Assembly (NCBI GenBank): GCA_964291655.2
Contig: OZ219802.1
Span: 2,528,001 to 2,592,000, forward strand
Origin: Chloroflexota bacterium
GTDB lineage: Bacteria > Chloroflexota > UBA11872 > VXOZ01
DNA length: 64,000 nucleotides
Direction: 5' to 3'
The notes below the pieces were generated by a model. It saw nothing but the letters and a program-made list of their open reading frames with translations, had not been told where the DNA came from and searched no databases. A program made the translations under genes and the position numbers. Numbering within the stretch: the stretch's first letter is position 1; the number at the start of each line of letters is the position of its first letter. Positions 24,806 through 46,638 of the stretch are shown piece by piece.

Positions 24806-25693
24806 TCAGCGGGGCACGGGCAGGCCGGTCGTGTTCAGCCGGATGCGGTAGAGGCTCGTGCGGGCAGTGACGAAGAGTGTGCTCCAGTCCGCTCCACCCC
24901 AAGCCACATTGGCCGGCTGTTCGTCGCCGATGATCCTCCCGAGCACGTGTCCTGCCGGATTTATCACCCAGATGCCGCCCGGCCCGGTGCAGAAGATGTT
25001 TCCTTGCGTGTCCACCTTCATGCCGTCGGGACTGCCGTCATCGCTTGAATTCATATCTGTCCAGAGGCGGTAATTGTCCAGGGCGCCGTCATCTCGCACC
25101 GCAAACGCGCGTATGTGGCGCCGCCGGCTGTCATTAACGTAGAGCGTTCGCTCATCGGGCGCAAAGGCAAGACCGTTCGGCCGGTCAAAGTCATCAGCCA
25201 AGAGGTGCAGCACGCCGTCGGTCGTAATCATATACACGCCGCGGAAGTCCAGGTCCGGCTCCAATCCCAAGTCCTCCACGCCGTACGGCGGATCGGTAAA
25301 GTAGAGCGTGCCGTCAGTGCTTACAACCACGTCGTTTGGGCTGTTGAGACTCTTGCCTTGGTAGGAGTCCGCCAGGGTCGTGTACGTGCCGTCGGCCCCT
25401 TGCCTACTCACCCGCCGTGCGGAGTGCTCACAGGAGATGAGTAGCCCCTCGCGGTCCAGCGTAAGACCGTTCGCATTGCCGGAGGGTGTGCGATAGGTAC
25501 TCACCGAGAAGCCTTCCGGCGATTCTTGCCAGCGCACGGTGCGGCTGTTGGGAATATCGCTGAACAGCAGGCTGCCGTCCCGCCAGACTGGGCCTTCGGT
25601 GAATTTGAACCCGCCCGCGACGCGCTCGAGTTCCGCGTCTTGCGGTACAAGCTGAAAGAAAGCGGGATCGCGTACGTCGAAAGTGGTTGCCAT
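24806..25693 (-). CDS. SMP-30/gluconolactonase/LRE family protein
   Basis: FTEGPVW, FSDIP, NGL, NSPND, FTDP, PNGLAF.PD, PDG.KVD. Confidence 0.93.
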   Translation of the reverse strand: MATTFDVRDPAFFQLVPQDAELERVAGGFKFTEGPVWRDGSLLFSDIPNSRTVRWQESPEGFSVSTYRTPSGNANGLTLDREGLLISCEHSARRVSRQGADGTYTTLADSYQGKSLNSPNDVVVSTDGTLYFTDPPYGVEDLGLEPDLDFRGVYMITTDGVLHLLADDFDRPNGLAFAPDERTLYVNDSRRRHIRAFAVRDDGALDNYRLWTDMNSSDDGSPDGMKVDTQGNIFCTGPGGIWVINPAGHVLGRIIGDEQPANVAWGGADWSTLFVTARTSLYRIRLNTTGLPVPR

Positions 25694-25789
25694 GTTGATT
25701 TGCTCCAAAGTTATCCGCGTAGCGGCTACGGGGCATGATTCGCTAAATAGTGCCAAGTCTGTGGAGGAGTGCCGGCTAGCGGCGAAGAT

Positions 25790-26502
25790 CCCCTCACCCT
25801 AACCCTCTCCCCAAGGAGAGGGGATGTACAGGCTACTCACCTCAATCCCTCCCCCAGGGAGAGGGGCTATACAGGCTACTCACCCTAACCCTCTCCCCCA
25901 GGGAGAGGGGCTATACAGGCTACTCACCCTAACCCTCTCCCCCAGGGAGAGGGGCTATACAGGCTACTCACCCTAACCCTCTCCCCCAGGGAGAGGGGAT
26001 ATACAGGCTTATCACCCTGACTCTCCCCCAGGGAAAGGGGATGTACAGGCTACTCACCCTAACCCTCTCCCTGTATAGACCGGGTTGATGGGTAACAGGT
26101 GTTCGGGTTGATAGGTTACACCATCGAATATGGGAGTTTTCGTTGTATGCAGTGTCCATGCCATGGAAGTTAGACCAACTCAATACCCTTATGGATACGG
26201 CTTTTCCCCTGGCACCAGCTCACGAACTGAACATGAGTATGTCGTGGTGCCTGGAACGTCTATTTCTCTGCCCAACCTAAAGCGCCCAAAGGTGTCAATC
26301 AGTACAATGTGTAACCTATCAACCCGAACACCTGTTACCTATCAGCCCAGTCTGTACACTCCCCAGGGAGAGGGAATGTACAGGCTACTCACCCTAACTC
26401 TCTTCCCAGGGAGAGGGAATGTCAGGCTACTTACCCTAACTCTCCCCCAGGGAGGAGGGGCTGTACAGGCTACTTACCCTAACCCTCTTCCCGAGAAGAG
26501 GA
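25790..26502. repeat. Tandem array of ~10 REP hairpin units of 42-44 bp (CTCACCCTAACCCTCTCCCCCAGGGAGAGGGGCTATACAGGCTA); unit 7 interrupted by a MITE
   Basis: CAGGCT anchors at 25829, 25872, 25916, 25960, 26004, 26046, 26381, 26423, 26466; no unique spacers. Confidence 0.92.
26072..26358 (+). mobile_element. 287-bp IS481-like MITE, copy 1
   Basis: TGT...ACA ends; 50-bp TIRs (46/50 match); 5-bp duplication CTCCC at 26067-26071 and 26359-26363; MPWK at 26158 and GAWNVYF at 26246. Confidence 0.9.
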
Positions 26503-26560
26503 GATGTTCTTGCTTTCTGCCGGGAGTGTGGATAGCCCCCCTAAGGTTATGCCCTTTGGC

Positions 26561-27976
26561 TTACCGTCGTCGGAAGACGTGTACGGCGCGGCGGTCGACG
26601 TCCCAGGAGGCTTCCATGATAGCTTCCGCGAGCGTGGGATGGGGATGAATATTGAGGCCGACTTCCAGGGGCGTTGCTTCCAGCATTTGCGCCAGTCCCA
26701 TCTCGGCGACGATGTCGGTGGCGCCGGGCCCTATGACGTGGGTACCCAGAATCTCATCGGTCTTGGCGTCGCAGACCATCTTTACAAAGCCTTCGGTCTG
26801 CCCCTTGATGAGCGCCTTGCCCAGTGCGGCAAAGGGGAATCGCCCGACTTTCACTTCCTTCCCCTGCGCGGCGGCTTCCTCCTCCAAGAGACCGATGCTC
26901 GCGATTTCCGGTCGGCAATACGTGGCGCGAGGCACGCGCAAGGGGTCCAGTGGGAAGGAACTCTCACCGGCAAGGTGCTCCATGGCGATGTGCCCTTCGG
27001 CGGTGGCCTTGTGGGCGAGCAGGAAGCCGCCCGCTACGTCGCCTATCGCGTAGACGTGCGGCACATTTGTGCGGCCGTATCCGTCAACCGGAATGATGCC
27101 GCCCTCCGACTTTATGCCAAGCGCATCCAATCCAAGGCCCTCGGTGTTGCCAATTCTTCCGACGGCCACAAGCAGCACATCTGCATGCAGAGACTCTTGC
27201 TTACCTTTTACTTCAATGTCAACCGTTGCAGAATCTTCATTCGTCTTTAGACTTTCCACCAACAGCTTGGCGTCAGTCTTGACAGTAATCCCACGCCGCT
27301 TAAACGAGCGGCCGAGTTCCTTGCCGATGTCTTTGTCTTCCAAGGGCACCAATGTCGGCATGATCTCGACCACCGTCACGGCCACGCCAAAATCGTGAAG
27401 GAGACTTGCCCATTCAACGCCTACCGCACCCGCGCCCAAGATGATGACCGACTCCGGCAGCGTGGTGAGTTCAAGCGCATGATCGCTGCTGATCACCGCT
27501 TTGCCGTCTATCTCCAGTCCCGGCAGGCTGCGTGGTCGTGAGCCGGTCGCGATGACGACGTTGTCGGCGCTAAGGTCTTGGCCGCCGGCGCTGCTCTCCA
27601 CGTGCACTGTTTGGGGCGACGTGAGGGTTCCGGTCCCGAAGAAAACGTCTATTTTGTTTCTTTTCAGCAGCCCTTGCACGCCTTTGTGGAGCTGTGCCAC
27701 CACCTGGGACTTGCGATCAAGCACTTTGGCATAGTCAAATGAAACATCCGTGGCGACAACTCCAAAGGCCGTGCTTTCGTCGCGGGCGTGGTACAGGTGC
27801 TCGGCGGATTCCAGCAAAGCCTTGGTGGGGATGCAGCCTTTGTGGAGGCAGATTCCGCCGAGTTTTTCCTTCTCGACCACAGCCACCTTGAGCCCAAGTT
27901 GTGCGCCGCGAATTGCGGCAGGGTAGCCCCCCGGGCCACCGCCAATAATCACAACGTCATGTGTGTTTTCTGCCAT
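26561..27976 (-). CDS. lpdA: Dihydrolipoyl dehydrogenase (E3)
   Basis: GGGPGG, GGICLHKGCIPTK, ATGS, YAIGD, LAHKA, HPHPTL.E. Confidence 0.96.
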   Translation of the reverse strand: MAENTHDVVIIGGGPGGYPAAIRGAQLGLKVAVVEKEKLGGICLHKGCIPTKALLESAEHLYHARDESTAFGVVATDVSFDYAKVLDRKSQVVAQLHKGVQGLLKRNKIDVFFGTGTLTSPQTVHVESSAGGQDLSADNVVIATGSRPRSLPGLEIDGKAVISSDHALELTTLPESVIILGAGAVGVEWASLLHDFGVAVTVVEIMPTLVPLEDKDIGKELGRSFKRRGITVKTDAKLLVESLKTNEDSATVDIEVKGKQESLHADVLLVAVGRIGNTEGLGLDALGIKSEGGIIPVDGYGRTNVPHVYAIGDVAGGFLLAHKATAEGHIAMEHLAGESSFPLDPLRVPRATYCRPEIASIGLLEEEAAAQGKEVKVGRFPFAALGKALIKGQTEGFVKMVCDAKTDEILGTHVIGPGATDIVAEMGLAQMLEATPLEVGLNIHPHPTLAEAIMEASWDVDRRAVHVFRRR

Positions 27977-28175
27977 AGTGCCTTCCCTTCAGGACTGGGT
28001 CAGCCTGAAATCGGTATTCATTCAAGAATTCTTCTCGTGTGCGCTAATTCCATCTTGCCGAATGCACTGCTCAGGAATCAAATCGGGCGAACTCTGCGTT
28101 CGCCCGATGTTCCGAAACTTGGAGCCAGGAGATTACGCCACCCAGGTGAAAACGCCACCCAGGTGAATGCGCCGC

Positions 28176-29435
28176 TTAGATCAGCAAGTTATAGGGACTT
28201 TCCAGGAGGTCTTTCAAGTCCCGCAGGAACTCAGCTGCAGGAGCGCCGTAAAGTATCCGGTGGTCGGCAGAGATGCTGAGGAACATGATGTCGCGTATGA
28301 CGATTTCACCATCGCGAACGACGGGACGCGGCTCTATGCCGCCAACGGCAATGATGGCGGACTGAGGAGGATTCACGATGGCGTAAAAGTCACGCACACC
28401 GAACATCCCCAGATTCGATACGGTAAACGTGCCGCCTTCCAGGTCGCCGGGTCGATTCTTGCCTTCACGGGTACGCTCAACCAGCACCTTTGCTTCTACG
28501 GCGAGTTGACGGAGCGGCTTGGTGTCGCAGTTCTTGAGCACGGGGACCAGCAAACCGCTGGGTACGGCAACAGCAATTCCGATATTTGCCTCTTGGTGAT
28601 ATACAAAGCCGCCATCGCGATAGTAGCCGTTTGCATCCGGATGCCGCATGAGAGAGAGCGCGGTCGCTCTCATGATGATGTCGTTGTAACTAATGCGCTC
28701 TTCTTCACTCCAGGCGGCGTTCACCTCCGCCCGCATCGCCTTGGCGGCGCTCATGTCCACTTCCAGCGTAAGGTAGAAATGCGGCACGGTGGTCTTGCTT
28801 TCGACCATACGCCGGACGATTGTGGCCTGCATGCGCGAGAGTGAAGCCACCTCAGTCTCGCTCGGCATTGCGGCAGGATCGTCGGAGACGGCAGCGTCGC
28901 GTGCCGCCTTTTCAACATCATCCTTGACGATGCGGCCGCCAGGGCCGGTGCCTGTAATCTTCGTGAGGTCAAGACCTTGTTCAGCGGCCATACGGCGCGC
29001 GAGCGGCGACGCCTTGACGCGACCGGACGCTGCATCAGTTTGCGCTGCGTCGGCAGGTTGGGATGCGGAGCCGGTCTCTCCTGTGCTGCCGTCGGCGACA
29101 GCGCGCTGTGGACTGCCCAAGTCCACGCCGCTCTCCGGGGCATCGCCAGCCGCGGGCTCGGTAGGAGCGGCAACAGCTATCTGCTTTCCTATCTCACTCT
29201 CATCACCCACCAATGCTATGGGGGCTCCCAGAGCCGCCGAACCGCCTTCTGCCACGAGAAGCTGAAGCAATGTGCCCTCTTCTACGGATTCGAGATCCAT
29301 CACGGCCTTATCGGTCTCGATTTCGGCGAGCAACTCGCCCTTCTTGATGCTGTCACCCACCTGCTTATACCACTGCAGGACTCTCCCTTCCTCCATGGTA
29401 TCGCTAAGCCTGGGCATGGGGACTTCACGGGCCAT
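28176..29435 (-). CDS. pdhC: Dihydrolipoamide acetyltransferase (E2)
   Basis: Lipoyl domain ETDKA, E3-binding ASPLARR...GTGPGGRI, catalytic DHR..YG. Confidence 0.93.
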   Translation of the reverse strand: MAREVPMPRLSDTMEEGRVLQWYKQVGDSIKKGELLAEIETDKAVMDLESVEEGTLLQLLVAEGGSAALGAPIALVGDESEIGKQIAVAAPTEPAAGDAPESGVDLGSPQRAVADGSTGETGSASQPADAAQTDAASGRVKASPLARRMAAEQGLDLTKITGTGPGGRIVKDDVEKAARDAAVSDDPAAMPSETEVASLSRMQATIVRRMVESKTTVPHFYLTLEVDMSAAKAMRAEVNAAWSEEERISYNDIIMRATALSLMRHPDANGYYRDGGFVYHQEANIGIAVAVPSGLLVPVLKNCDTKPLRQLAVEAKVLVERTREGKNRPGDLEGGTFTVSNLGMFGVRDFYAIVNPPQSAIIAVGGIEPRPVVRDGEIVIRDIMFLSISADHRILYGAPAAEFLRDLKDLLESPYNLLI

Positions 29436-29463
29436 GTCTTGGGTTGCTCCTCTTCCTGTCGGT

Positions 29464-30441
29464 CTAAGCGTTGAGGGTAGTTTTCACGGCGTCTACGATC
29501 TTTTCCGGACTAGGTATTACCGCTTGCTCCAGGGGTTTGGAATAAGGCATCGGCACTTCCACCCCGCCAACACGTTCGATGGGAGCGTCCAAATGGTCGA
29601 ATGCTTCTTCGTAGATGGTCGCGGCCACCTCGGCGTTCACGCCAAAGGAGCGGTGCTCTTCTTCCGCGATGACACAGTGGTTCGTCTTCTGTACGGAGTG
29701 GACGAGTGTCTCCACGTCAAATGGCCGGATGCTGCGCAAGTCGATAACTTCTACGCTTATGCCCTCTTCGCTCAGTTGGGCGGCGGCCTGCAGTGCAAAG
29801 AGCACCATCCGCGAGTGCGCGATGAGGGTGACGTCGCTGCCGACACGCTTCACATCCGCTTCCCCAAAGGGAACGGTGTGCTCACCCTCCGGCACCACGC
29901 CCTTGCTGTTGTAGAGGGCCAGATGCTCCAAGAACATTACCGGGTTGTCGTCACGGATAGCAGTCTTAAGCAGGCCCTTGGCATCGGCAGGCACGGCCGG
30001 CGCGACTACCTTCAAGCCGGGGATGTACGCGAACCACACGTCAAGGCTGTGCGAATGCTGGGCCGTGAGCTGCTGGCCGCCGCCGCCGGGAGCGCGAATG
30101 ACCATGGGGCACTTGAGCCTGCCACCGAACATATAGCTGATCTTGGCGGCATGATTCGCAATCTGGTCCATTGCCACCATGCCGAAGTTGATCGTCATGA
30201 GTTCGACGACGGGGCGGAGGCCCGTCATTGCTGCGCCAGCGCCTAATCCGACGAATCCTTCTTCCGCGATGGGAGTGTCGATGACGCGCTTTTCGCCAAA
30301 GCGTTCCAGCAGGCCCTCGGTGACTTTGTATGCGCCCTGAAAGACACCGACCTCTTCACCCATAACGAAGACGTCCGGGTCTTGGTCCATTTCCTCAATC
30401 AGGGCATCGCGCAGGGCTTCCCGATATGAAATTTCTGCCAT
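29464..30441 (-). CDS. pdhB: Pyruvate dehydrogenase E1 beta subunit
   Basis: GEEV, DTPIAE, AQHS, PGLKVV, DLRS.RP.D, LDAP. Confidence 0.93.
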   Translation of the reverse strand: MAEISYREALRDALIEEMDQDPDVFVMGEEVGVFQGAYKVTEGLLERFGEKRVIDTPIAEEGFVGLGAGAAMTGLRPVVELMTINFGMVAMDQIANHAAKISYMFGGRLKCPMVIRAPGGGGQQLTAQHSHSLDVWFAYIPGLKVVAPAVPADAKGLLKTAIRDDNPVMFLEHLALYNSKGVVPEGEHTVPFGEADVKRVGSDVTLIAHSRMVLFALQAAAQLSEEGISVEVIDLRSIRPFDVETLVHSVQKTNHCVIAEEEHRSFGVNAEVAATIYEEAFDHLDAPIERVGGVEVPMPYSKPLEQAVIPSPEKIVDAVKTTLNA

Positions 30442-30468
30442 AGGTCTTGTGCTCCCTGGGACAGATGA

Positions 30469-30764
30469 TTAGAAAATATGCCCGTTATCTGCTTGCGTTT
30501 TGCGCGGTAGCAACTCAAGCGCGGCCAATACCGCTATGGCCAAGCCGGCCGCAGCGAAAACGTATGCGCCCGAATGCAGCCGCATGCGCAACTCCAACTC
30601 ACGAAGGTCGGCTGTGGTCGACCGCGCCAGTTCCCTGAGGTCAGACTTGGTCGCTAAGGCGTCATGCGAGTCGCCCATGACGTCTAACCTGGCCTCCGCT
30701 TTGACCTCGCCAAAACCTGCTGCCGTAAGCGTTTTACGGCTCTATGGGTGTCAAACGCCGCCAT
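30469..30764 (-). pseudogene. DUF1640/CCDC90-like small coiled-coil membrane protein, frameshifted (pseudogene or sequencing error)
   Basis: ATG 30764 reads MAAFDTHRAVK; one extra A in the A4 run (TTTT 30732-30735) joins it to TLTAAGF..AEA...LATKSDL...LELR plus a C-terminal TM helix. Confidence 0.7.
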
Positions 30765-30766
30765 GC

Positions 30767-31810
30767 CTACACATCCTCGGCGTACACGAATTTTTCCAGT
30801 TCCGCCACGTCAGGGAACGGGCTCCGCTCGGCAAAGTCCACCGCTGATTGCACCTTGGCAAGCACGGCTTCTTCAATGTCGTCGGCGTCTTCCTGTGTGA
30901 AGATCTCACCCTCGAGCAGGCGCTTCCGGAAGTTCTCTACCGGGTCGCGTTCACGCCACTCCGCAATTTCGTCTACGGTGCGGTAGTTCTTGCCCGCATC
31001 CGCCATCGAGTGGCCGCGATAGCGGTACGTGACGCACTCGACAAATATCGGCTCGCTTGTGCGCCGCACTTCTTCTACGAGCTTCTTCGTTAGTTGGTAC
31101 ACCGCGAGCACGTCCATGCCATTAACTTTGTAGCCGGGAATGTCATAGGCCACGCCCTTCTTCCACAACTCGGTTACGGCGGAGGCGCGCGCAACGCTGG
31201 TACCCATGCCGTATTGGTTGTTCGTGCAGATGAAGAGGTTCGGCAGTTTCCACAGCGAGGCAATGTTGAGCGCTTCGTGGAAAGCCCCAATATTGGTGGC
31301 GCCGTCGCCAAAAGTGGACATAACGATTTCATCGCTGTCCCGGTACTTGATGGCAAACGAGACACCGGTGGAGAGCGGGATACTGCCGCCCACGATGCCG
31401 TAGCCGCCCATGAAGCGGCGGTCGGGGTCTACCAGGTGCATCGAGCCGCCACGGCCCTTTGCGCAACCGTCCCGCTTACCGAACAGCTCTGCCATAACGG
31501 TACCGTGTGGCAACTCACGCACTATGGCTGAGCCGTGCACACGGTAACTACCGAAAAAGTAGTCTTCTTTTCTTAGCGCCTTAAGGGTACCGACGACGGT
31601 GGCTTCCTCACCGATGTTTAGGTGGCAGTAGCCGCCGATTTTGGCACGCAAGTACATTTCCGCCACACGCTCCTCAAAGCGCCTGACGTATAGCATGCTG
31701 GTATAGAAGTCGATAAGTTGGTCGTTCTCATAGTTGGCGAGATCGCCGGAGTCGCGTACCGGGAGCTCAGTGTCAGTAACCTGGTCTGTCGGTTCCTGGC
31801 TTTGGCTCAT
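30767..31810 (-). CDS. pdhA: Pyruvate dehydrogenase E1 alpha subunit
   Basis: G.CHL.IG.EA, GRGGSMH, FGDGA.N, NNQYGMGT, TYRYRGHSM.D. Confidence 0.95.
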   Translation of the reverse strand: MSQSQEPTDQVTDTELPVRDSGDLANYENDQLIDFYTSMLYVRRFEERVAEMYLRAKIGGYCHLNIGEEATVVGTLKALRKEDYFFGSYRVHGSAIVRELPHGTVMAELFGKRDGCAKGRGGSMHLVDPDRRFMGGYGIVGGSIPLSTGVSFAIKYRDSDEIVMSTFGDGATNIGAFHEALNIASLWKLPNLFICTNNQYGMGTSVARASAVTELWKKGVAYDIPGYKVNGMDVLAVYQLTKKLVEEVRRTSEPIFVECVTYRYRGHSMADAGKNYRTVDEIAEWRERDPVENFRKRLLEGEIFTQEDADDIEEAVLAKVQSAVDFAERSPFPDVAELEKFVYAEDV

Positions 31811-32163
31811 TCCCGTATTACCTCCTTTGGCATCTCGGGCTGGAAGCCCTGTTTTACCGTGTCACGCAACCCGCAAAATGCAACGGGACCCCGATACGCC
31901 AAGTATGGGCATTTCCCGTTGTCCCCAGCGCGCTGCGTGATGTTCGCACATCACCGTGCACTCTGTTCGAGCGCGGCCCAATTCCTCATGGTGCGCATTT
32001 CGCACCCAGCCAAAATGCACGCACCACCGTTGGCATGCCACGCTCCACCTTCCTCATTATACCGTAGAGAAACACTGCGTGGCACGACCCGGGGGGCGAA
32101 CAGGCTCGTGCTATACTGTGCGGAAGATCTGAAAGTTGATTTTTCACATATAAGGGTGCTTGC

Positions 32164-32631
32164 ATGCTGGCTGTGGTGCAACGCGTGCGTGAAGCGCGTG
32201 TGGACGTTGGTGAAAGACTTGTCAGTAGCATCGGCCAGGGGCTTGTCGTGCTCATTGCCGTGAAGACTGGCGATACGGGAGAGGCTGCAACGTATGTTGC
32301 TACGAAGCTCGCTACCTTACGCATCTTTGGCGATGAAGCCGGCAAGATGAATCTCTCGGTGCAGGAGGTGGGCGGCGCAGTGCTCGTGGTCTCGCAGTTC
32401 ACGCTCTATGGCGAGACCCGCAAGGGCCGCCGGCCGAGCTTTACCAAGTCCGCCCGGCCGGAGGAAGCCGAGCCATTGATCGGGCAGGTAGTCAGCAGTC
32501 TGCAGGACCAGGGAATACCCGTTGCTTGCGGTGAGTTCGGAGCAATGATGCAGCTATCACTCATCAACGACGGGCCGGTTACCATCATTCTCGATTCGGA
32601 CGACCGCGAGATTCCGCGCCGACAGGCATAG
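32164..32631 (+). CDS. dtd: D-aminoacyl-tRNA deacylase
   Basis: VVQRV..A.V, LRIF.DE.GKMN.S, SQFTL, GRRPSF, FGA.M...NDGPVT. Confidence 0.97.
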   Translation: MLAVVQRVREARVDVGERLVSSIGQGLVVLIAVKTGDTGEAATYVATKLATLRIFGDEAGKMNLSVQEVGGAVLVVSQFTLYGETRKGRRPSFTKSARPEEAEPLIGQVVSSLQDQGIPVACGEFGAMMQLSLINDGPVTIILDSDDREIPRRQA

Positions 32632-32669
32632 GTGAAGGCGACGGCGACCGGCGGACGTTGCGCGAAGAG

Positions 32670-32730
32670 TCACAAGGGGCGGGCACAATCACCTGAGTTT
32701 CAAGCTGGTGATCGCGTCCGCCCTTTGTGA
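32670..32730. terminator. Long hairpin between convergent dtd and rpoC, probable terminator
   Basis: TCACAAGGGGCGG...CCGCCCTTTGTGA. Confidence 0.55.
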
Positions 32731-32825
32731 TTCTAACGGCATACTTTTCCGACAGGCTGCAAGAGAGCCGCTACTCTGCGGTTTCTTCTGCTGTGCCCTC
32801 TGCGGTGGGTTCCTCGACAGATGCC

Positions 32826-37331
<4,506 letters not shown>

Positions 37332-37421
37332 ATAACAATACGCCTCCTCGTACTGTGCTGGGAAAAAGCTTTGCTAGCAGCGGCAGACTGCCGTTGGGCG
37401 AACACAGGTCCCAAACTTGTG

Positions 37422-40400
37422 CTATTCGTGATGCTCGCGACCTTGCAGGTTGATACCCCCAAGATCGGGCAGGCCATCCGTGTCGCCTTCTTCGGGGAAG
37501 CGGATTTCCTCTTCGTTCTCGTTGAGAACCTCCACCGCCAGAGCCAGACTTTGCAATTCTTTGACAAGAACTTTGAAAGACTCCGGAATGCCGGGCTGGA
37601 GGACTTCCTCCCCTTTAACGATTGCTTCATACGTTTTAACACGGCCATGCACGTCATCGGACTTGACCGTAAGCATCTCTTGCAATGTGTAGGCGGCGCC
37701 ATAGGCTTCCAATGCCCACACCTCCATCTCGCCAAAGCGCTGGCCGCCAAACTGCGCTTTGCCGCCTAAGGGCTGTTGCGTAATCAAGGAATAGGGGCCG
37801 GTGGAGCGGGCGTGCACTTTGTTTTCGACAAGATGGGCGAGTTTTAGCATGTATACCCAACCGACCGTTATTTCCTGGTCGAAGGCCTCGCCGGAGCGGC
37901 CGTCGTAAAGGACTGCCTTGCCGTTGCGGGGCAGCTCCGCAGACTCCAGTGCGCTTTCGATCTCGGCCTCGCCTGCGCTGTCGAAAACCGGCACGACTGC
38001 CTGGTAACCCAGTTCGTGCGCGGCCCACCCCAAATGTGCTTCGAGGATTTGACCGAGGTTCATGCGGGAAGGAGCGCCAAGCGGGCTGAGAACGATATCC
38101 ACCGGCGTGCCGTCGGCCAGATGCGGCATGTCTTCCACGGGCATGATGCGCGCAACCACGCCTTTGTTGCCGTGGCGCCCTGCCATCTTGTCTCCTGCCA
38201 TAAGCTTGCGCTTGGAGGCCACAGATACCCGGACCATCTCATTCACGCCGCTGGAGAGCTCGTCGCCCATCTCCTTATTAAAGGTGCTGACGTCTACCAC
38301 TTTGCCGTGCTCACCGGCCGGCATGCGCTTGGAAGTGTCTTTGACATCGCGGGCGTCCTTGCCAAAGATGGCGCGCAGAAGCCGGTCTTCGCCGGTCAGG
38401 TCCGTTTCGCCTTTTGGCGTGACTTTGCCCACCAGAATGTCATCCGGGTGGACTTCCGCACCGACGTAAATGACGCCGTTCTCGTCCAAGTTCCGCAGGG
38501 CCTCTTCGGCCACGTTGGGAATATCGCGCGTAATCTCTTCGGGCCCTAATTTCGTGTCCCGGGCCTCGCACTCATACTTTTCAACATGGACGGACGTAAA
38601 GAGGTCCTCTTGCACCACGCGATCGCTGATGATGATGGCGTCTTCGTAGTTGCCGCCTTCCCAGAACATGAAAGCGCACAAGACGTTTTGTCCTAGGGCA
38701 AGTTGCCCGTTGTCTGTCGAGGAACTATCCGCCAGCGGCTGGCCCGCCACCACGCGCTCGCCTTTGCGCACGATGGCGCGCTGATTGAAGCAGGTGGCTG
38801 CATTGGTGCGCTCGAATTTCTTCAGGGGATAGACGTGCTCCTCGCCGTCGTCGCCCAGCAAGCGAAGTTCGCGTGCCGTAGCGCCGCTGACAATGCCGTC
38901 CACGGCAGCGCAAAGAACCTGTCCCGAATCTTCCGCTGCTTTCCACTCCATTCCGGTGGCCACGAGGGGCGCTTCCGGCGTGAGAAGCGGTACCGCCTGC
39001 CGTTGCATGTTGGCGCCCATCAATGCCCGGTTCGCATCGTCGTGCTCCAGGAAAGGAATGAGCGACGTAGGTACGCTGACAATCTGTTTCGGCGAGACGT
39101 CCATGAAATCTATGCGATCGGGAACTTCCTGCAGGAATTGCCCGCCGGCGCGGCAGGCAACCCGATCTTCTACAAACTCGCCAACTTCGTTAATCCGGGC
39201 ATTTGCCTGGGAGACGATGTACAGGTCCTCCTCGTCTGCAGAGAGATACGTAACACCGTCAACGTTCATGCTGGCAAAGGGACGCAGAGGTAGCTCCGTC
39301 CCCACGAGATTGGCTTCCTTAAGGGCGGCTATGTCGTTTTCGGTTAGTACCGTGCCGGATGGGATGACAACGGTGTCGCCACTCTTAATGTCTGCGGTCA
39401 CCGTGTGGCCGATGAGGTCCGCGCCATCGCCCTTAAGCGTGAGTGACTTTATGACTTGCCGATAGGGCGTTTCTATGAAGCCGTAATCGTTGACGCGTCC
39501 ATAGCTGGCGAGGCTGCCGATGAGGCCGATGTTCGGACCTTCCGGCGTCTCAATCGGGCAAATGCGTCCGTAGTGCGAGTGGTGCACGTCGCGCACGTCA
39601 AAGCCTGCGCGATCGCGGGATAGCCCGCCCGGTCCCATGGCAGAGAGGCGCCGCTTATGCCCCAACTCTGAAAGGGGGTTAGTCTGGTCCATGAATTGCG
39701 AGAGCTGGCTGCCGCCAAAAAACTCGCGCACGGCGGCAACCACCGGTCGCGTGTTGATGAGGGCTGCCGGCGTTACGGTCGCCGGGTCTTGCAGCGTCAT
39801 ACGTTCTTTAATGACGCGCTCCATGCGGAGCAGGCCGATGCGAAACTGGTTCTGCAGGAGTTCGCCGACCGCCCGCACGCGTCGGTTCCCCAGGTGGTCG
39901 ATGTCGTCCGGGGGATTCTGCGAGTTGTCGAGTTCGATGAGCCTGCGGACGATATACACAAGGTCTTCGGGTGTGAGCGTGCGTACTTCCGGCGGCGTGG
40001 GCATCTGTAAACGCTTGTTGAGCTTGTAGCGCCCGACGCGGCCCAGGTCGTACCGACGCCCGTTGAAGAACGTCGACTCGATTAGATTCTTGGCATTGTC
40101 CAGCGTGACCGGATCGCCGGGCCGGATGCGCTTGTATACCTCCCGCAAGCCACTCTCCTGCGAGTTGGAGGGATCGCGCCGCTGGGCACCGTCTTGCCCG
40201 CCGATGGTGGTGGCAATGTAGGGGTGATCGGGGTTTGTATCGATGTCATGGAAGAGGTCGTAGAGTTCAGAATCGGAGCCGTAACCGACGGCGCGCAGGA
40301 GTGCCGTCACGGGAATGGTGCGGCGTTTATCCACCTTGACGGTCAATATATCCTTGGCGCTGGTTTCGAATTCCAGCCACGCCCCGCGATTGGGGATGAG

Positions 40401-40883
40401 CTTGGCGCTATAGAGATAGCGGCTGCCGGAAGGGTCTTCCCTGCGGGTATAGTACACCCCTGGCGAGCGCACCAATTGGCTCACCACCACGCGCTCCGTG
40501 CCGTTGTAAATGAACGTACCGGAACTGCTCATGAGCGGAAAGTCGCCCATGAAGACCGTCATCTCTTTGATTTCGCCGGTCTGCTTGATAAGCAGTTTTG
40601 CTCGTACACGAAGGGGCGATTGGTAGGTTAGGTCACGTTTGCGGCATTCGTTTTCGTCGTAAGGCGGCCGGTCAAACGGGTTTTCCGGCACTTCGAAGCT
40701 GAGTTCAAAATTCTTTCCCGTAAAGTCCTCAATGGGCGAAATCTCAGCAAACACCTCTCGTAGCCCATTAGTTTGGAACCAGCGAAAGGACCGCATTTGC
40801 AGTTCGATGAGGTCGGGTAGCGGTAATATCTCCGGCAACTTGCCATAGTTGTGTTGCTGCAATGCTTTACCGCTCATGGCCAT
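37422..40883 (-). CDS. rpoB: RNA polymerase beta subunit
   Basis: [38 protein letters not shown]. Confidence 0.98.
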
Positions 40884-41104
40884 AGTAACTATCCTCTCTC
40901 GCCACTTAGATACTGTCCAAAGCGACTATTGCGCCAAGGTACATTACTTCCATGATAGCAGTTTGCACCTGCGGGAACAACTGGCCGCTTGCAGCGGGCC
41001 GAGGGTGAAAGCCCCCTTGCGAGTCCTTGTGATCTTGCCCACAACATCGCGCAGCGCGAGATTCGGTGGGGCGTTTCTCACCCCATGTACGCCGTCGCCT
41101 TGCA

Positions 41105-42694
41105 TCAGCTCTCTTTGAGTATCGCCATCGCGGCGTTGTGGCCGGGGGCGCCGGTTACGCCGCCGCCGGGATGGGCGCCGGAGCCGCAGAGGTAGAGGTT
41201 TCGCACCGGCGTGGCGTAACGCGCCCAGCCCAATGCTGGACGCATGAAGAAGAGCTGATCGAGGCTCAGTTCCCCATGGAAGATGTTGCCTCCGGTAAGG
41301 CCGTATTCTTGCTCCAAGTCCAGGGGGGAGAGGGCGTGCACGTGCTCGATGGCTTGGGGCAAATTGGGAGCATAGGCGGCGAGGGTATCAATGATGCGCT
41401 GCACAAAGCGCTCTTTCTCTTCCGGCCACGTACTCTCCTTGAGCCGGTAGGGCGCGTACTGCACAAATATGCCCATGACGTGTTTTCCCTCGGGTGCGAG
41501 GGAAGAGTCATAGGCTGTGGGGATGGTGATCTCCAGCAGGGGATGCTCGGAGGGTTTGCCGTACTTGGCATCATCCCAGGCGCGTTCCAAATACTCCATG
41601 CTTGGACAAATGTGTGTAGTGCCCCGGTGCTGCGGTCCGAGAGTCGTGCCGGGTAAGGCCGTGTAGTCCGGCAACTCGCCCAAAGCGAGATTGAGCTTGA
41701 ACGACGACCCTTCACATTGGTACGACTCGATTTGCGAAATAAAGTCTTCCGGCAGGGAGCGGCGCTCCACGAGATGCAGGAACGTGCGCTTGGGGTCGGC
41801 ATTCGAAACAACGACGTTGGCGTGGTATTCGGCGCCATCTTCCAGCACCACGCCCGTGGCTGCGTCGCCACGTGTAACCACTTGGGCGACCGGCGCGTCC
41901 GTGAGAATCACTGCGCCGTGGGCTTGGGCCGAGGCTGCCAGGGCTTGGGTGATGGCGCCCATGCCGCCCTCCACAAACCCCCATAGTCCGCGCACCCCGC
42001 CGACACCGCCCATTACGTGGTGCAGGAGCACGTAGGCAGTGCCGGGAGTGCGCGGGCCGCCGTTTGTGCCGATCACACCGTCAGTGGCAAGCGCCACTTT
42101 CAATGCATCCGATTCGAACCATTCGTCTAGGATGGATTGCACGCTCCGCGTCATGAGCTTGACCGCGTCAGCCAATTGCGCGTTGGAGAGACCGAGGAGC
42201 GTGCGTCCCGCGCGCAGCGGCTCAAGCCAGTCGCTCAGCCGTTGGGGCGGAAACTGTGGCGGCGGCTGCAAGAAGAGCGGTTCGATGAGTTTCGCGACAC
42301 CTTCGATGTACCTTTCATATTCGGGATAGCGTTCCGCGTCTCGAGCCGAAAACTTGGCGATTTCCTGAGAGGTGCGCGCCAAGTCACGGTACATAAAGAG
42401 GTGGCTGCCGTCGGGGTAAGGAGCGAAATATGCCGGGTCTTTGGGAAATGCCTTGTAACCGTAGCGCGGCAATTCAAGCTCCCGCACCACTTTCTCCTGG
42501 AGCAGGCTTACCAGGTAGGAACACGTGGAAACACGGTAGCCGGGAAAGACCTCTTCAGTCACGCACGCGCCGCCGACGATGGGCCGGCGCTCCAGCACCA
42601 GCACCCTCCAGCCGGCGCGCGCCAGGTAGCCTGCCGTGACGAGTCCGTTATGGCCCGCCCCGATGATGATGGCGTCGTATGTGGAATTCGTCAT
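41105..42694 (-). CDS. Phytoene-desaturase-family (PYROXD2-like) FAD oxidoreductase
   Basis: GAGHNGL..A.YLA..G..V.VLERR..VGGAC.TEE; GGMG; GNIFHG; LYLCGSGAHPGGGV.G.PG.NAA. Confidence 0.9.
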   Translation of the reverse strand: MTNSTYDAIIIGAGHNGLVTAGYLARAGWRVLVLERRPIVGGACVTEEVFPGYRVSTCSYLVSLLQEKVVRELELPRYGYKAFPKDPAYFAPYPDGSHLFMYRDLARTSQEIAKFSARDAERYPEYERYIEGVAKLIEPLFLQPPPQFPPQRLSDWLEPLRAGRTLLGLSNAQLADAVKLMTRSVQSILDEWFESDALKVALATDGVIGTNGGPRTPGTAYVLLHHVMGGVGGVRGLWGFVEGGMGAITQALAASAQAHGAVILTDAPVAQVVTRGDAATGVVLEDGAEYHANVVVSNADPKRTFLHLVERRSLPEDFISQIESYQCEGSSFKLNLALGELPDYTALPGTTLGPQHRGTTHICPSMEYLERAWDDAKYGKPSEHPLLEITIPTAYDSSLAPEGKHVMGIFVQYAPYRLKESTWPEEKERFVQRIIDTLAAYAPNLPQAIEHVHALSPLDLEQEYGLTGGNIFHGELSLDQLFFMRPALGWARYATPVRNLYLCGSGAHPGGGVTGAPGHNAAMAILKES

Positions 42695-43482
42695 GCTTCA
42701 ATTGCGAAAACGCGGAGGGCGTTCCGGCAGAGTATCGCTTCTTGCTGGGCGTTAGTGAGCTTGCGGCAGTGGCGTTGGATAAGCTGGGGCCCAAACTCGA
42801 TGGGCATGTGCGGGGCGTTGGTAGCATTCAGCACGCGTTCGGCCCCGACGCCGTCAACGAGATTTTGTATATAGATAGGACGCAGCACGCCAGCGAGGTC
42901 TACGACTGTATTCTCGGCTCTGCGCATGAAGGGGACAACTTCGGGCACGAACCCTGGGACGCCCGCGTGGGCGATGATAAAGGTGATGCCGGGAAAATCC
43001 AGGGCCAAGTCGGCGACCAGCGCCGGCGTACAGGTGTGGCCGTGTTCCTCACCGGTGTGGATCATCACCGGCACGCGAAGCGCCGCGATGGCTTCCAAGA
43101 CCGGCTCCAGCAGGGCGCGGTCGGCGAGGGAATAGCAGCCTGCGCCGTAGGTGGAGGCGTCGATGGTGTTCAACTTGACAGCGTGAAAGCCACGATCGCG
43201 CACCCAGTAGTGCATTTCGTCAATGGCTTGAGCGCCGCGTGGGGGTTTAACCCGCACGAAGCCATAGATGCGGTCCGGATAGGTGGCGATGGCCTGCGCG
43301 ATGCGCTCGTGGTCGGCGGCAAAGTGATCTGCAGCGCCCACGCCGGGAGGCGCACAGAGTGCCCGGTCCACTTCGCCCCGATCCATGTAGGCGATCATGT
43401 CTGGGCCCTGCATGGTGGCGGGCATGCCCTGGACTTCCCAGATGGGGTTGTGTCCGAGATAGCAGTGCGCGTCGATAATCAC
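42691..43482 (-). CDS. Amidohydrolase-2 family protein
   Basis: GTG start after GGAGGT; IIDAH, PV.IHTG, IIAHAG, RNA.R.F; ATGA overlap with the downstream oxidoreductase. Confidence 0.8.
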   Translation of the reverse strand: MIIDAHCYLGHNPIWEVQGMPATMQGPDMIAYMDRGEVDRALCAPPGVGAADHFAADHERIAQAIATYPDRIYGFVRVKPPRGAQAIDEMHYWVRDRGFHAVKLNTIDASTYGAGCYSLADRALLEPVLEAIAALRVPVMIHTGEEHGHTCTPALVADLALDFPGITFIIAHAGVPGFVPEVVPFMRRAENTVVDLAGVLRPIYIQNLVDGVGAERVLNATNAPHMPIEFGPQLIQRHCRKLTNAQQEAILCRNALRVFAIEA

Positions 43483-43562
43483 AGTTGGACCTCCATTTTC
43501 GCCAACGAGACTCTTGAGGAGCTCTGCCAAGCAGTTAGACACGGGCTCGATTGCCGCCAGAT

Positions 43563-43886
43563 CCCCTTCACCCCGGCCCTCTCCCTGTACAGACTGGGCT
43601 GATAGGTAACAGGTGTTCGGGTTGATAGGTTACACATTGTACTGATTGACACCTTCGGGCGCTTTAGGTTGGGCAGAGAAATAGACGTTCCAGGCACCAC
43701 GACATACTCATGTTCAGTTCGTGAGCTGGTGCCAGGGGAAAAACCGTATCCATAAGGGTATTGAGTTGGTCTAACTTCCATGGCATGGACACTGCATACA
43801 ACGAAAACTCCCATATTCGATGGTGTAACCTATCAACCCGAACATGTGTTACCCATCAACCCGGTCTATACACTCCAGGGAGAGGG
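43563..43886. repeat. Single REP hairpin of the 25790 family split by MITE copy 2
   Basis: CCCCTTCACCCCGGCCCTCTCCC on the left, CTCCAGGGAGAGGG on the right. Confidence 0.8.
43586..43872 (-). mobile_element. 287-bp IS481-like MITE, copy 2 (inverted relative to copy 1)
   Basis: Same length as copy 1 with ~4 substitutions by eye; flanks CTCCC / CTCCA. Confidence 0.9.
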
Positions 43887-44001
43887 AGACATTCCCGCCT
43901 GCTGGCCCAAGGAGGGCAAAGGCTTTCTCAAAAGAGAGTGGAGTCTGTGCCTCAAAACTGGGATAGGCTAGGGTCTCCTGGAGAGTAGGGTCTGAACGTG
44001 G

Positions 44002-46638
<2,637 letters not shown>

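Follow-up and report, generated by a model that had tools for sequence, protein, structure and literature searches.

Insertion into repetitive extragenic palindromic sequences (REPs) lets insertion sequences (ISs) multiply without killing their host. Such targeting has been documented in the IS3, IS110, IS4, IS256, and IS5 families (Tobes & Pareja 2006, PMC1525189); the term IS481 has 0 occurrences in that article. The sources cited here by PMC accession were available in part, and what is said of them holds for those parts. For the IS481 family, an element of about 1.3 kb that targets a REP was reported from Pseudomonas fluorescens SBW25 (2024, PMC11708052). The principle that an IS of this family can target a REP was thus already published, and the novelty that a preliminary description of the present locus had supposed is correspondingly smaller. 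Here we describe a further case, in a 64,000-nucleotide stretch of a Chloroflexota genome (GenBank assembly GCA_964291655.2, contig OZ219802.1, positions 2,528,001 to 2,592,000 of the forward strand; hereafter the window, numbered from its first letter), in which two 287-bp miniature transposable elements with inverted repeats (MITEs) split copies of one dispersed palindromic repeat. The reading we favor, with a probability of roughly 0.85, is that these MITEs were mobilized in trans by an IS481-family transposase and inserted in a targeted manner into a repeat built of three blocks.

The SBW25 element resembles the IS found in our genome in its family, its length, its 49-bp inverted repeats, and its short target duplication; it differs in having five copies in one proteobacterium, another REP family as target, and a 4-bp duplication (PMC11708052). 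In the available text of that report it has no MITEs, and neither a third block nor a triplex motif is mentioned. No REP targeting by the IS481 family was found beyond the SBW25 paper and preprint (PMC6209633 and PMC10433421 included, as far as their text was available), most subscription journals, ISfinder/TnPedia, and supplementary files being outside the scope of the search. IS1397 and ISKpn1 (IS3 family) and IS621, ISPpu9, ISPpu10, and ISPa11 (IS110 family) likewise occupy a fixed position within REPs or palindromic units, and the authors of that survey also read the target as recognized by the transposase (PMC1525189). Their transposases belong to other families, and the available part of the survey reports no requirement for a third block (PMC1525189); the IS110 elements moreover use a different chemistry and are without inverted repeats.

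The target itself has a counterpart in a separate literature. The TMECO 'intrastrand triplex motif', CCCTCNCCC-N3-6-GGGNGAGGG-N3-GGGNGAGGG with one stem mismatch allowed, was counted 3610 times in 262 proteobacterial genomes and is reported to fold stably as a triplex in vitro (Holder et al. 2015, PMC4666352). Like our repeat, it is intergenic, multi-copy, and tied to variable loci. Holder et al., who counted it in proteobacterial genomes only, found no association with transposons or transposases in the part of their study available, and called the mechanism of instability unclear (PMC4666352). In our genome, unlike in that report, an IS or a MITE occupies roughly one motif in four to one in three. 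Within the literature scope given above, no paper was found that connects insertion sequences with the triplex motif. What is new is that the target is a triplex motif, that insertion depends on the third block, and that ISs and MITEs in Chloroflexota form paired subfamilies.

The two MITEs lie at positions 26072-26358 (copy 1, plus strand) and 43586-43872 (copy 2, minus strand, inverted relative to copy 1). They are 99% complementary, with an identity of 98.6% (four mismatches). Copy 1 contains no transposase gene; its left side is the end matching the left end of the IS described below, TGTATAGACC, and two further genomic copies are 100% identical to it. The terminal inverted repeats of 50 nt begin with TGTA and are 92% complementary in copy 1 and 88% in copy 2. 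Each element separates two halves of the target repeat, which reads on the plus strand at both loci. At copy 1, the left half (26053-26071) consists of a third block CTCACCC, a spacer TAA, and a middle block CCCTCTCCC; the right half (26359-26374) consists of CTCCC, the remainder of the loop, and a G-arm GGGAGAGGG, the sequence directly after the element being CTCCCCAGGGAGAGGG. At copy 2, the left half (43565-43585) holds a third block CCTTCACCCC, a spacer GG, and the same CCCTCTCCC, reading ...CACCCC-GG-CCCTCTCCC up to the element; the right half (43873-43886) is CTCCA followed by GGGAGAGGG, and the sequence after the element is CTCCAGGGAGAGGG. The target duplication of copy 1 is CTCCC (26067-26071 and 26359-26363), starting at arm position 5; that of copy 2 is CTCCC (43581-43585) against CTCCA (43873-43877), one mismatch apart. 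A 20-nt palindrome is recovered when the element and either copy of the direct repeat are taken out. Both MITEs lie between genes. The preliminary description had placed two 287-bp elements about four substitutions apart at these coordinates, splitting the same hairpin, with the repeat in equal orientation, the element inverted, and the host repeats different (spacers TAA versus GG); all of this was confirmed.

Searching the source genome (G000; 3.47 Mb in two contigs, C1 and C2; 59% G+C) for the element ends returned 137 termini, which gave 67 paired elements, comprising 24 copies of 1265 bp, 11 of 287 bp, and 32 of 288-289 bp. The 68th (C1:473618) is 288 bp long and degenerate at one end, for a total of 68 complete elements, 24 ISs and 44 MITEs. 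The 1265-bp IS has one open frame, 377 amino acids when counted from a conserved start, and this frame is open in 24 of 24 copies, none of which lies inside the window. Typical IS481 elements have a single transposase frame, a length of about 1-1.3 kb, inverted repeats starting with TGT, and a short target duplication. The elements found here have lengths of 1265 or 1287 bp (the latter in a third lineage, C, treated below), one frame of 377-384 amino acids, 50-nt repeats starting with TGTA, and a 5-6 bp duplication. Against the IS481 model NF033577 of NCBIfam (cut-off 224 bits), the transposases scored 290.3 (subfamily A), 278.9 (subfamily B), and 293.3 bits (lineage C); the IS3 model returned 114-118 bits, failing its cut-off of 160. 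The Pfam domains rve, HTH_32, and LZ_Tnp_IS481 are present in the transposase.

The 1265-bp copies divide into subfamily A (17 copies) and subfamily B (seven copies, two of them with a hybrid end pair). Between the A and B proteins identity is 89%, and of the 43 differences 27 fall in the helix-turn-helix region made up by the first 60 residues; the ends differ in two internal sub-repeats, GGG[TG]ACAT in A versus GGGTTGAT in B. MITEs of 287 bp, both window copies included, have B-type ends and those of 288 bp have A-type ends; the genome thus holds two cognate IS-MITE pairs. In the 287-bp MITE the right-end repeat is identical to that of the subfamily-B IS at 50 of 50 positions, and the left-end repeat differs at three. 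The window elements have the makings of a MITE throughout: 287 bp, no transposase gene, ends matching an IS, a 5-6 bp duplication, and 11 copies. Similarity to the IS is confined to the terminal 51-53 nt, and the inner 180 nt are therefore not obviously derived from it by deletion. The MITE copies are 98.3-100% identical and the IS frames intact, which are signs of recent movement. The proposal that the window elements are IS481-like and non-autonomous was thereby upheld, a parent IS of 1265 bp having been found (279-290 bits for A and B), as was the proposal that their transposase is encoded elsewhere, the seven subfamily-B copies with matching ends all lying outside the window. Two of the IS copies, C2:909903-911167 and C2:1793963-1795227, are recombinant, combining the left end and N-terminus of B with the right end of A. 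Traces of loss were also seen: a 10-17-nt remnant of an element end within an otherwise normal repeat (C2:1710217) and a truncated element (C2:921078-921134).

Canonical repeat halves flank 67 of the 68 copies. In 57 of the 67 paired copies we found a 3-6 bp duplication within the repeat (5-6 bp in 55 of them), and its removal restored a repeat of the form CACC[CT]-N2-5-CCCTCTCC-loop-GGAGAGGG. The 68th copy also lies within the repeat, with a duplication GGGGA, so that removing the element and one copy of the duplication left a normal repeat in 58 cases. Nine of the 67 have repeat halves on both sides and no exact duplication, some being one base off, and one (C2:1507574) lies in a hairpin of different sequence adjoining GGGGTGAGGG. 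With the repeat oriented so that CACCC comes first, duplications begin at position 5 of the left arm in 35 copies, 6 in ten, 7 in five, 9 in one, -1 in one, and at the mirror position on the other arm, 12, in five. Element and repeat have the same orientation in 29 cases and opposite orientation in 28. Empty, uninterrupted repeats number 168, or 161 by a stricter palindrome count (322 on both strands). The repeat covers about 0.2% of the genome; for 66 of 67 copies to lie there, the binomial P is about 1e-176, or about 1e-116 on the assumption that only 12% of the genome is available. The elements thus behave as REP-targeting ISs are expected to: most copies lie in one repeat family and at a fixed position, with empty repeats present. 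Three of the nine copies without an exact duplication (C2:1511277, 1520257, and 1793963) are flanked by halves of two different repeats, and these mixed flanks mark recombination between element copies. Each has either two third-block sides or two distal sides as its flanks. The halves missing at 1511277 and at 1520257 match each other on one side, as an inversion of the intervening stretch of roughly 9 kb would produce.

Random orientation, differing repeat variants, empty repeats, and duplications together indicate independent targeted insertions. Two other histories of the same pattern were considered. In the first, the repeat halves are constant parts of a longer element, or the elements spread by recombination or gene conversion between repeats. 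Mismatched or chimeric flanks occur in nine of the A and B copies and in 10 of 23 copies of an IS1182-type element described below; recombination between copies does take place. As a general account this history is very improbable, however, given the 29:28 orientation against an asymmetric repeat, the several insertion positions, the differing flanking variants, the 168 empty repeats, and the normal repeat restored in 58 cases. Random insertion followed by selection, keeping only those copies that fell in harmless intergenic repeats, suits a compact genome and the intergenic position of the repeats at both window copies. It offers no route to precision at the level of single nucleotides (the starts of 50 of 57 duplications fall within 3 nt) and leaves unexplained why 80 equally intergenic-looking hairpins lacking a third block were avoided; we hold it to be scarcely credible. 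Independent insertion rather than segmental duplication, without preference for orientation, is what the preliminary description had argued, and the two outcomes it had named as fatal did not appear, the copies being mostly neither outside the repeat family nor flanked by invariant halves without empty sites.

Read on its G-rich strand, the complete repeat consists of a C-arm CCCTCTCC(C), a loop of 2-7 nt, a G-arm (G)GGAGAGGG, a spacer N3-4, and the third block GGGTGAGGG. Duplication affects the 5 nt of the middle block that lie next to the loop. The palindrome is symmetric, yet 50 insertions lie on the CACCC side and five on the other, so that an asymmetric feature must be read. When up to one substitution was allowed in each arm, hairpins bearing a third block were occupied in 57 cases and empty in 156, as compared to 0 occupied and 80 empty without it (Fisher p = 2e-9). 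Limiting the comparison to perfect arms and loops of 3-5 nt gave 50/87 versus 0/21 (p = 2.4e-4). Insertion requires the third block, as no hairpin lacking it is ever used. The earlier proposal that a hairpin is recognized therefore stands in part: insertion is targeted to the repeat, but the hairpin alone is insufficient, the target being a three-block motif with the adjacent GGGTGAGGG.

Uninterrupted matches to the TMECO pattern numbered 48 under the strict definition and 144 under a relaxed one (at most two substitutions, loops of 2-6 and 3-4), with 0 in the shuffled genome. Of the 58 reconstructed occupied sites, 11 matched strictly and 55 under the relaxed definition. A generic three-block finder scored 57 of these 58 sites, and in 49 of them the duplication begins between -2 and 0 relative to the middle block. 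The target repeat fits the TMECO pattern, from which formation of a triplex is predicted. A second hairpin family (GAGCCTGCCCCGTAC..., for example C2:1507525-1507600) has 134 matches on both strands with at most two substitutions and often adjoins the CCCTCTCC hairpin where the third block would be.

The proposed course of events is as follows. The window MITEs would have been mobilized by the DDE transposase of the seven subfamily-B ISs of 1265 bp elsewhere in the genome, and inserted in either orientation, through a staggered cut of 5-6 bp, into a single repeat dispersed between genes. Recognition of the composite motif, by default on duplex DNA, would fall to the transposase or to the complex that it forms with the element ends. 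Transposition may follow a copy-out/paste-in route. That route, which passes through a circular intermediate, is known for the IS3 family, to which the IS481 group is related. A and B use the same site; the residues that distinguish them, and so the ends that they bind, are thus probably not those that choose the target. Because these transposases differ almost only in the DNA-binding N-terminus and in the element ends, yet share a target, the question of which part reads the target can be tested by domain swaps.

Recognition might instead depend on structure, with the transposase or the strand-transfer complex capturing the motif only once it has been extruded, for instance during replication or transcription, into a hairpin or an intrastrand purine-motif triplex, and joining taking place at the junction of loop and middle block. 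Several points speak for this: the motif fits a published triplex pattern reported to be stable in vitro (PMC4666352); the third block is needed; the MITE at C2:1507574 and an IS in a relative (locus L021) lie in hairpins of unrelated sequence adjoining GGGTGAGGG; the architecture is kept in relatives with different block sequences; and an unrelated IS of the IS1182 family uses the same hairpin. Tn7, a precedent for a DDE transposition system drawn to triplex DNA, has been reported to prefer triplex-forming DNA, but through a dedicated target-selection protein and on artificial or triplet-repeat targets rather than a dispersed genomic repeat (PMC2886061). A preference for loop sequence and the recurrent CTCCC duplication fit plain sequence reading, however, and all target variants are rich in G and C, with GGGAG-like cores. 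The cumulative GC skew of the two contigs showed no clear origin or terminus and gave no replication-strand comparison. We consider structure-dependent capture a possibility, if one that falls somewhat short of even odds, and by default keep to the view that the composite motif is recognized on duplex DNA.

The same repeat receives other elements. A scan for TGTATAGACC ends revealed the third IS481 lineage, C, of 1287 bp, in four complete copies (C2:1707063-1708349, L093; C2:1755174-1756460, L094; C2:1906013-1907299; C2:2408023-2409309) and one solo end (C2:1965576). Its transposase has 384 amino acids and is 55% identical to that of A, bringing the IS481-family transposase genes of the genome to 28 (A, B, and C). 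The lineage C duplication, CCCTC/GAGGG, is the other end of the same middle block, and its orientation is 2:2. Comparison of the genome with itself (repeats of at least 500 nt in at least three copies) yielded one further element, of 1643 bp, with 23 complete copies and two at contig ends (for example L095, C2:460350-462200); it is referred to the IS1182 family on two transposase frames that scored 141.7 and 215.2 bits against the IS1182 model, each below the cut-off of 270. This element occupies the loop of the target hairpins. A duplication of 5 bp, comprising the 4-nt loop and a single base of the arm, is present in 13 of 23 copies, and 10 of 23 have chimeric or mismatched flanks. Every multi-copy IS of the genome is found in the target repeat, each lineage at its own nucleotides. 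A copy of about 1.6 kb ends both contigs, which may thus be one replicon broken at the 1643-bp element.

The IS1182 family includes IS1272 of Staphylococcus aureus. Like the 1643-bp element, IS1272 is reported to target inverted-repeat (hairpin) structures; unlike it, IS1272 was reported to make no target duplications and to insert by replacing the inverted repeat (PMC5678879). The convergence of four IS lineages, from two unrelated transposase families, on the same repeat might suggest that a host protein bound to the repeat tethers transposition complexes and so brings unrelated ISs there, each to its own nucleotides. No candidate protein was identified, the sole gene resembling a REP-associated tyrosine transposase (RAYT) is not flanked by the repeat, and the trait goes with the IS clade into other phyla, as is more readily understood if it resides in the transposase. 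A host tether is therefore improbable in our view, and targeting by the transposase remains the preferred account.

The RAYT-like gene belongs to the single Y1_Tnp match in the genome (30.2 bits, C2:2523481-2523714), within a 226-amino-acid frame carrying the motifs HVH and YIESNP. Its region (L084, C2:2521981-2525214) lies about 4.3 kb before the start of the window, and neighboring frames carry a different short repeat, visible as recurring peptide strings. A RAYT link for the target repeat was considered and set aside, as no copy of the hairpin occurs in the 3.2 kb around this sole Y1 gene.

Related elements were sought by a scan of one genome per species, which gave 576 stretches, of which the best 80 were taken. 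These best 80 come mostly from genomes of Chloroflexota and Dehalococcoidia assembled from metagenomes, with single contigs labelled Desulfobaccales, Thiotrichales, Desulfurivibrio, and Planctomycetota. Element ends were found in 78 of the 80 loci (none for L040 and L054) and a duplication of at least 4 nt in 49. A stem of at least 7 bp was present at 37 of these 49 sites, as compared to 9.1% of 980 control positions in the same loci, and a conservative finder scored the three-block motif at 25 of 49 sites versus 0 of 490 controls; these figures are counts and not a test, copies within one genome not being independent. By identity class, three-block sites made up 11 of 12 at 71% or more, 8 of 19 at 63-65%, and 6 of 18 at 57-59%; seven further sites in the 63-65% class have three blocks with loops beyond the limit of the finder. 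The matches include the Desulfobaccales and Thiotrichales contigs, and their block sequences differ. From these sequences, the targeting trait appears to belong to the clade and not to a single genome. A bolder proposal is that triplex repeats serve as natural landing pads by virtue of a non-B DNA structure, the fold of the three-block motif and not its sequence being what is read by this cross-phylum IS481 clade and, independently, by a transposase of the IS1182 family, each joining at its own nucleotide of the middle block or loop. We offer this only tentatively and think it on balance unlikely. If true, it would explain the instability at triplex motifs known from E. coli to cyanobacteria, and it would represent a natural, structure-guided form of safe-harbor insertion, with two orthogonal pairs of transposase and ends serving one target.

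Several observations weigh against targeted insertion into a three-block repeat, or narrow what can be claimed for it. Targeting is inferred from fixed copies. Of the 80 hairpins without a third block, 33 represent another composite repeat, which contains a second hairpin, and mismatches in the arms occur in 43; no A or B element was found in the 33 of the composite type. Loops also matter, with about 51 of 146 CC-loops occupied versus 3 of 48 CG-loops, so that plain sequence preference plays a part. All multi-copy elements of at least 500 nt lie in the target repeat, which leaves the genome without an internal negative control. Among the relatives, 24 of 49 sites were not scored as three-block, and one (L026) is without a visible third block. 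The orthologous spacer of copy 2 in three species (G006, G007, and G002) has neither the repeat nor the MITE. Finally, the one allele that joins the flanks of copy 2 without the MITE is not an exact empty site, the junction carrying 57 other letters.

That allele came from a sequencing run of a diverged strain (X2), in which a contig joins the copy 2 flanks with the 57 letters in place of the element. The empty-site allele sought in reads was thus found to the extent that a MITE-free allele exists, and not as the exact precursor. In two near-identical runs (X13 and X15) the contigs break at the MITE ends, and a further run (X1) covers parts of the stretch only. Copy 2 lies between the stop codon of secA and the start of an amidohydrolase gene. 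This spacer (43543-44001; loci L088-L092) is hypervariable within the genus, ranging from 24 nt to about 3.2 kb; in one species (G001) it holds an unrelated tandem repeat. Copy 1 is flanked by an SMP-30-like gene and a gene for a pyridine-nucleotide oxidoreductase.

For the question of how DDE transposases recognize their target in REP targeting, the genome described here is an unusually clean natural data set, with about 100 insertions by four IS lineages from two transposase families, joined at three distinct positions of a single 30-nt motif. It further connects transposon insertion with a published class of repeats, the intrastrand triplex motifs, said to be associated with genome instability, and so joins two literatures.

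Rfam returned no match at the gathering score in window positions 25000-45000. A stretch of high depth at 44006-44061 was considered as a repeat and rejected, being the conserved SEC-C coding end of secA and single-copy in the genome. The repeat that received copy 1 is part of a tandem array on the plus strand: 44-nt units in 6.4 copies at 25793-26071, each unit being a three-block repeat and the last holding the MITE, followed after the element by a stretch of period 43 in 3.1 copies (26362-26492). The whole array (25793-26492) has about ten units of 43-44 nt, and the spacer between its repeats contains [CT]ATACAGG or TGTACAGG, which resembles the first bases of the element ends, possibly by chance.

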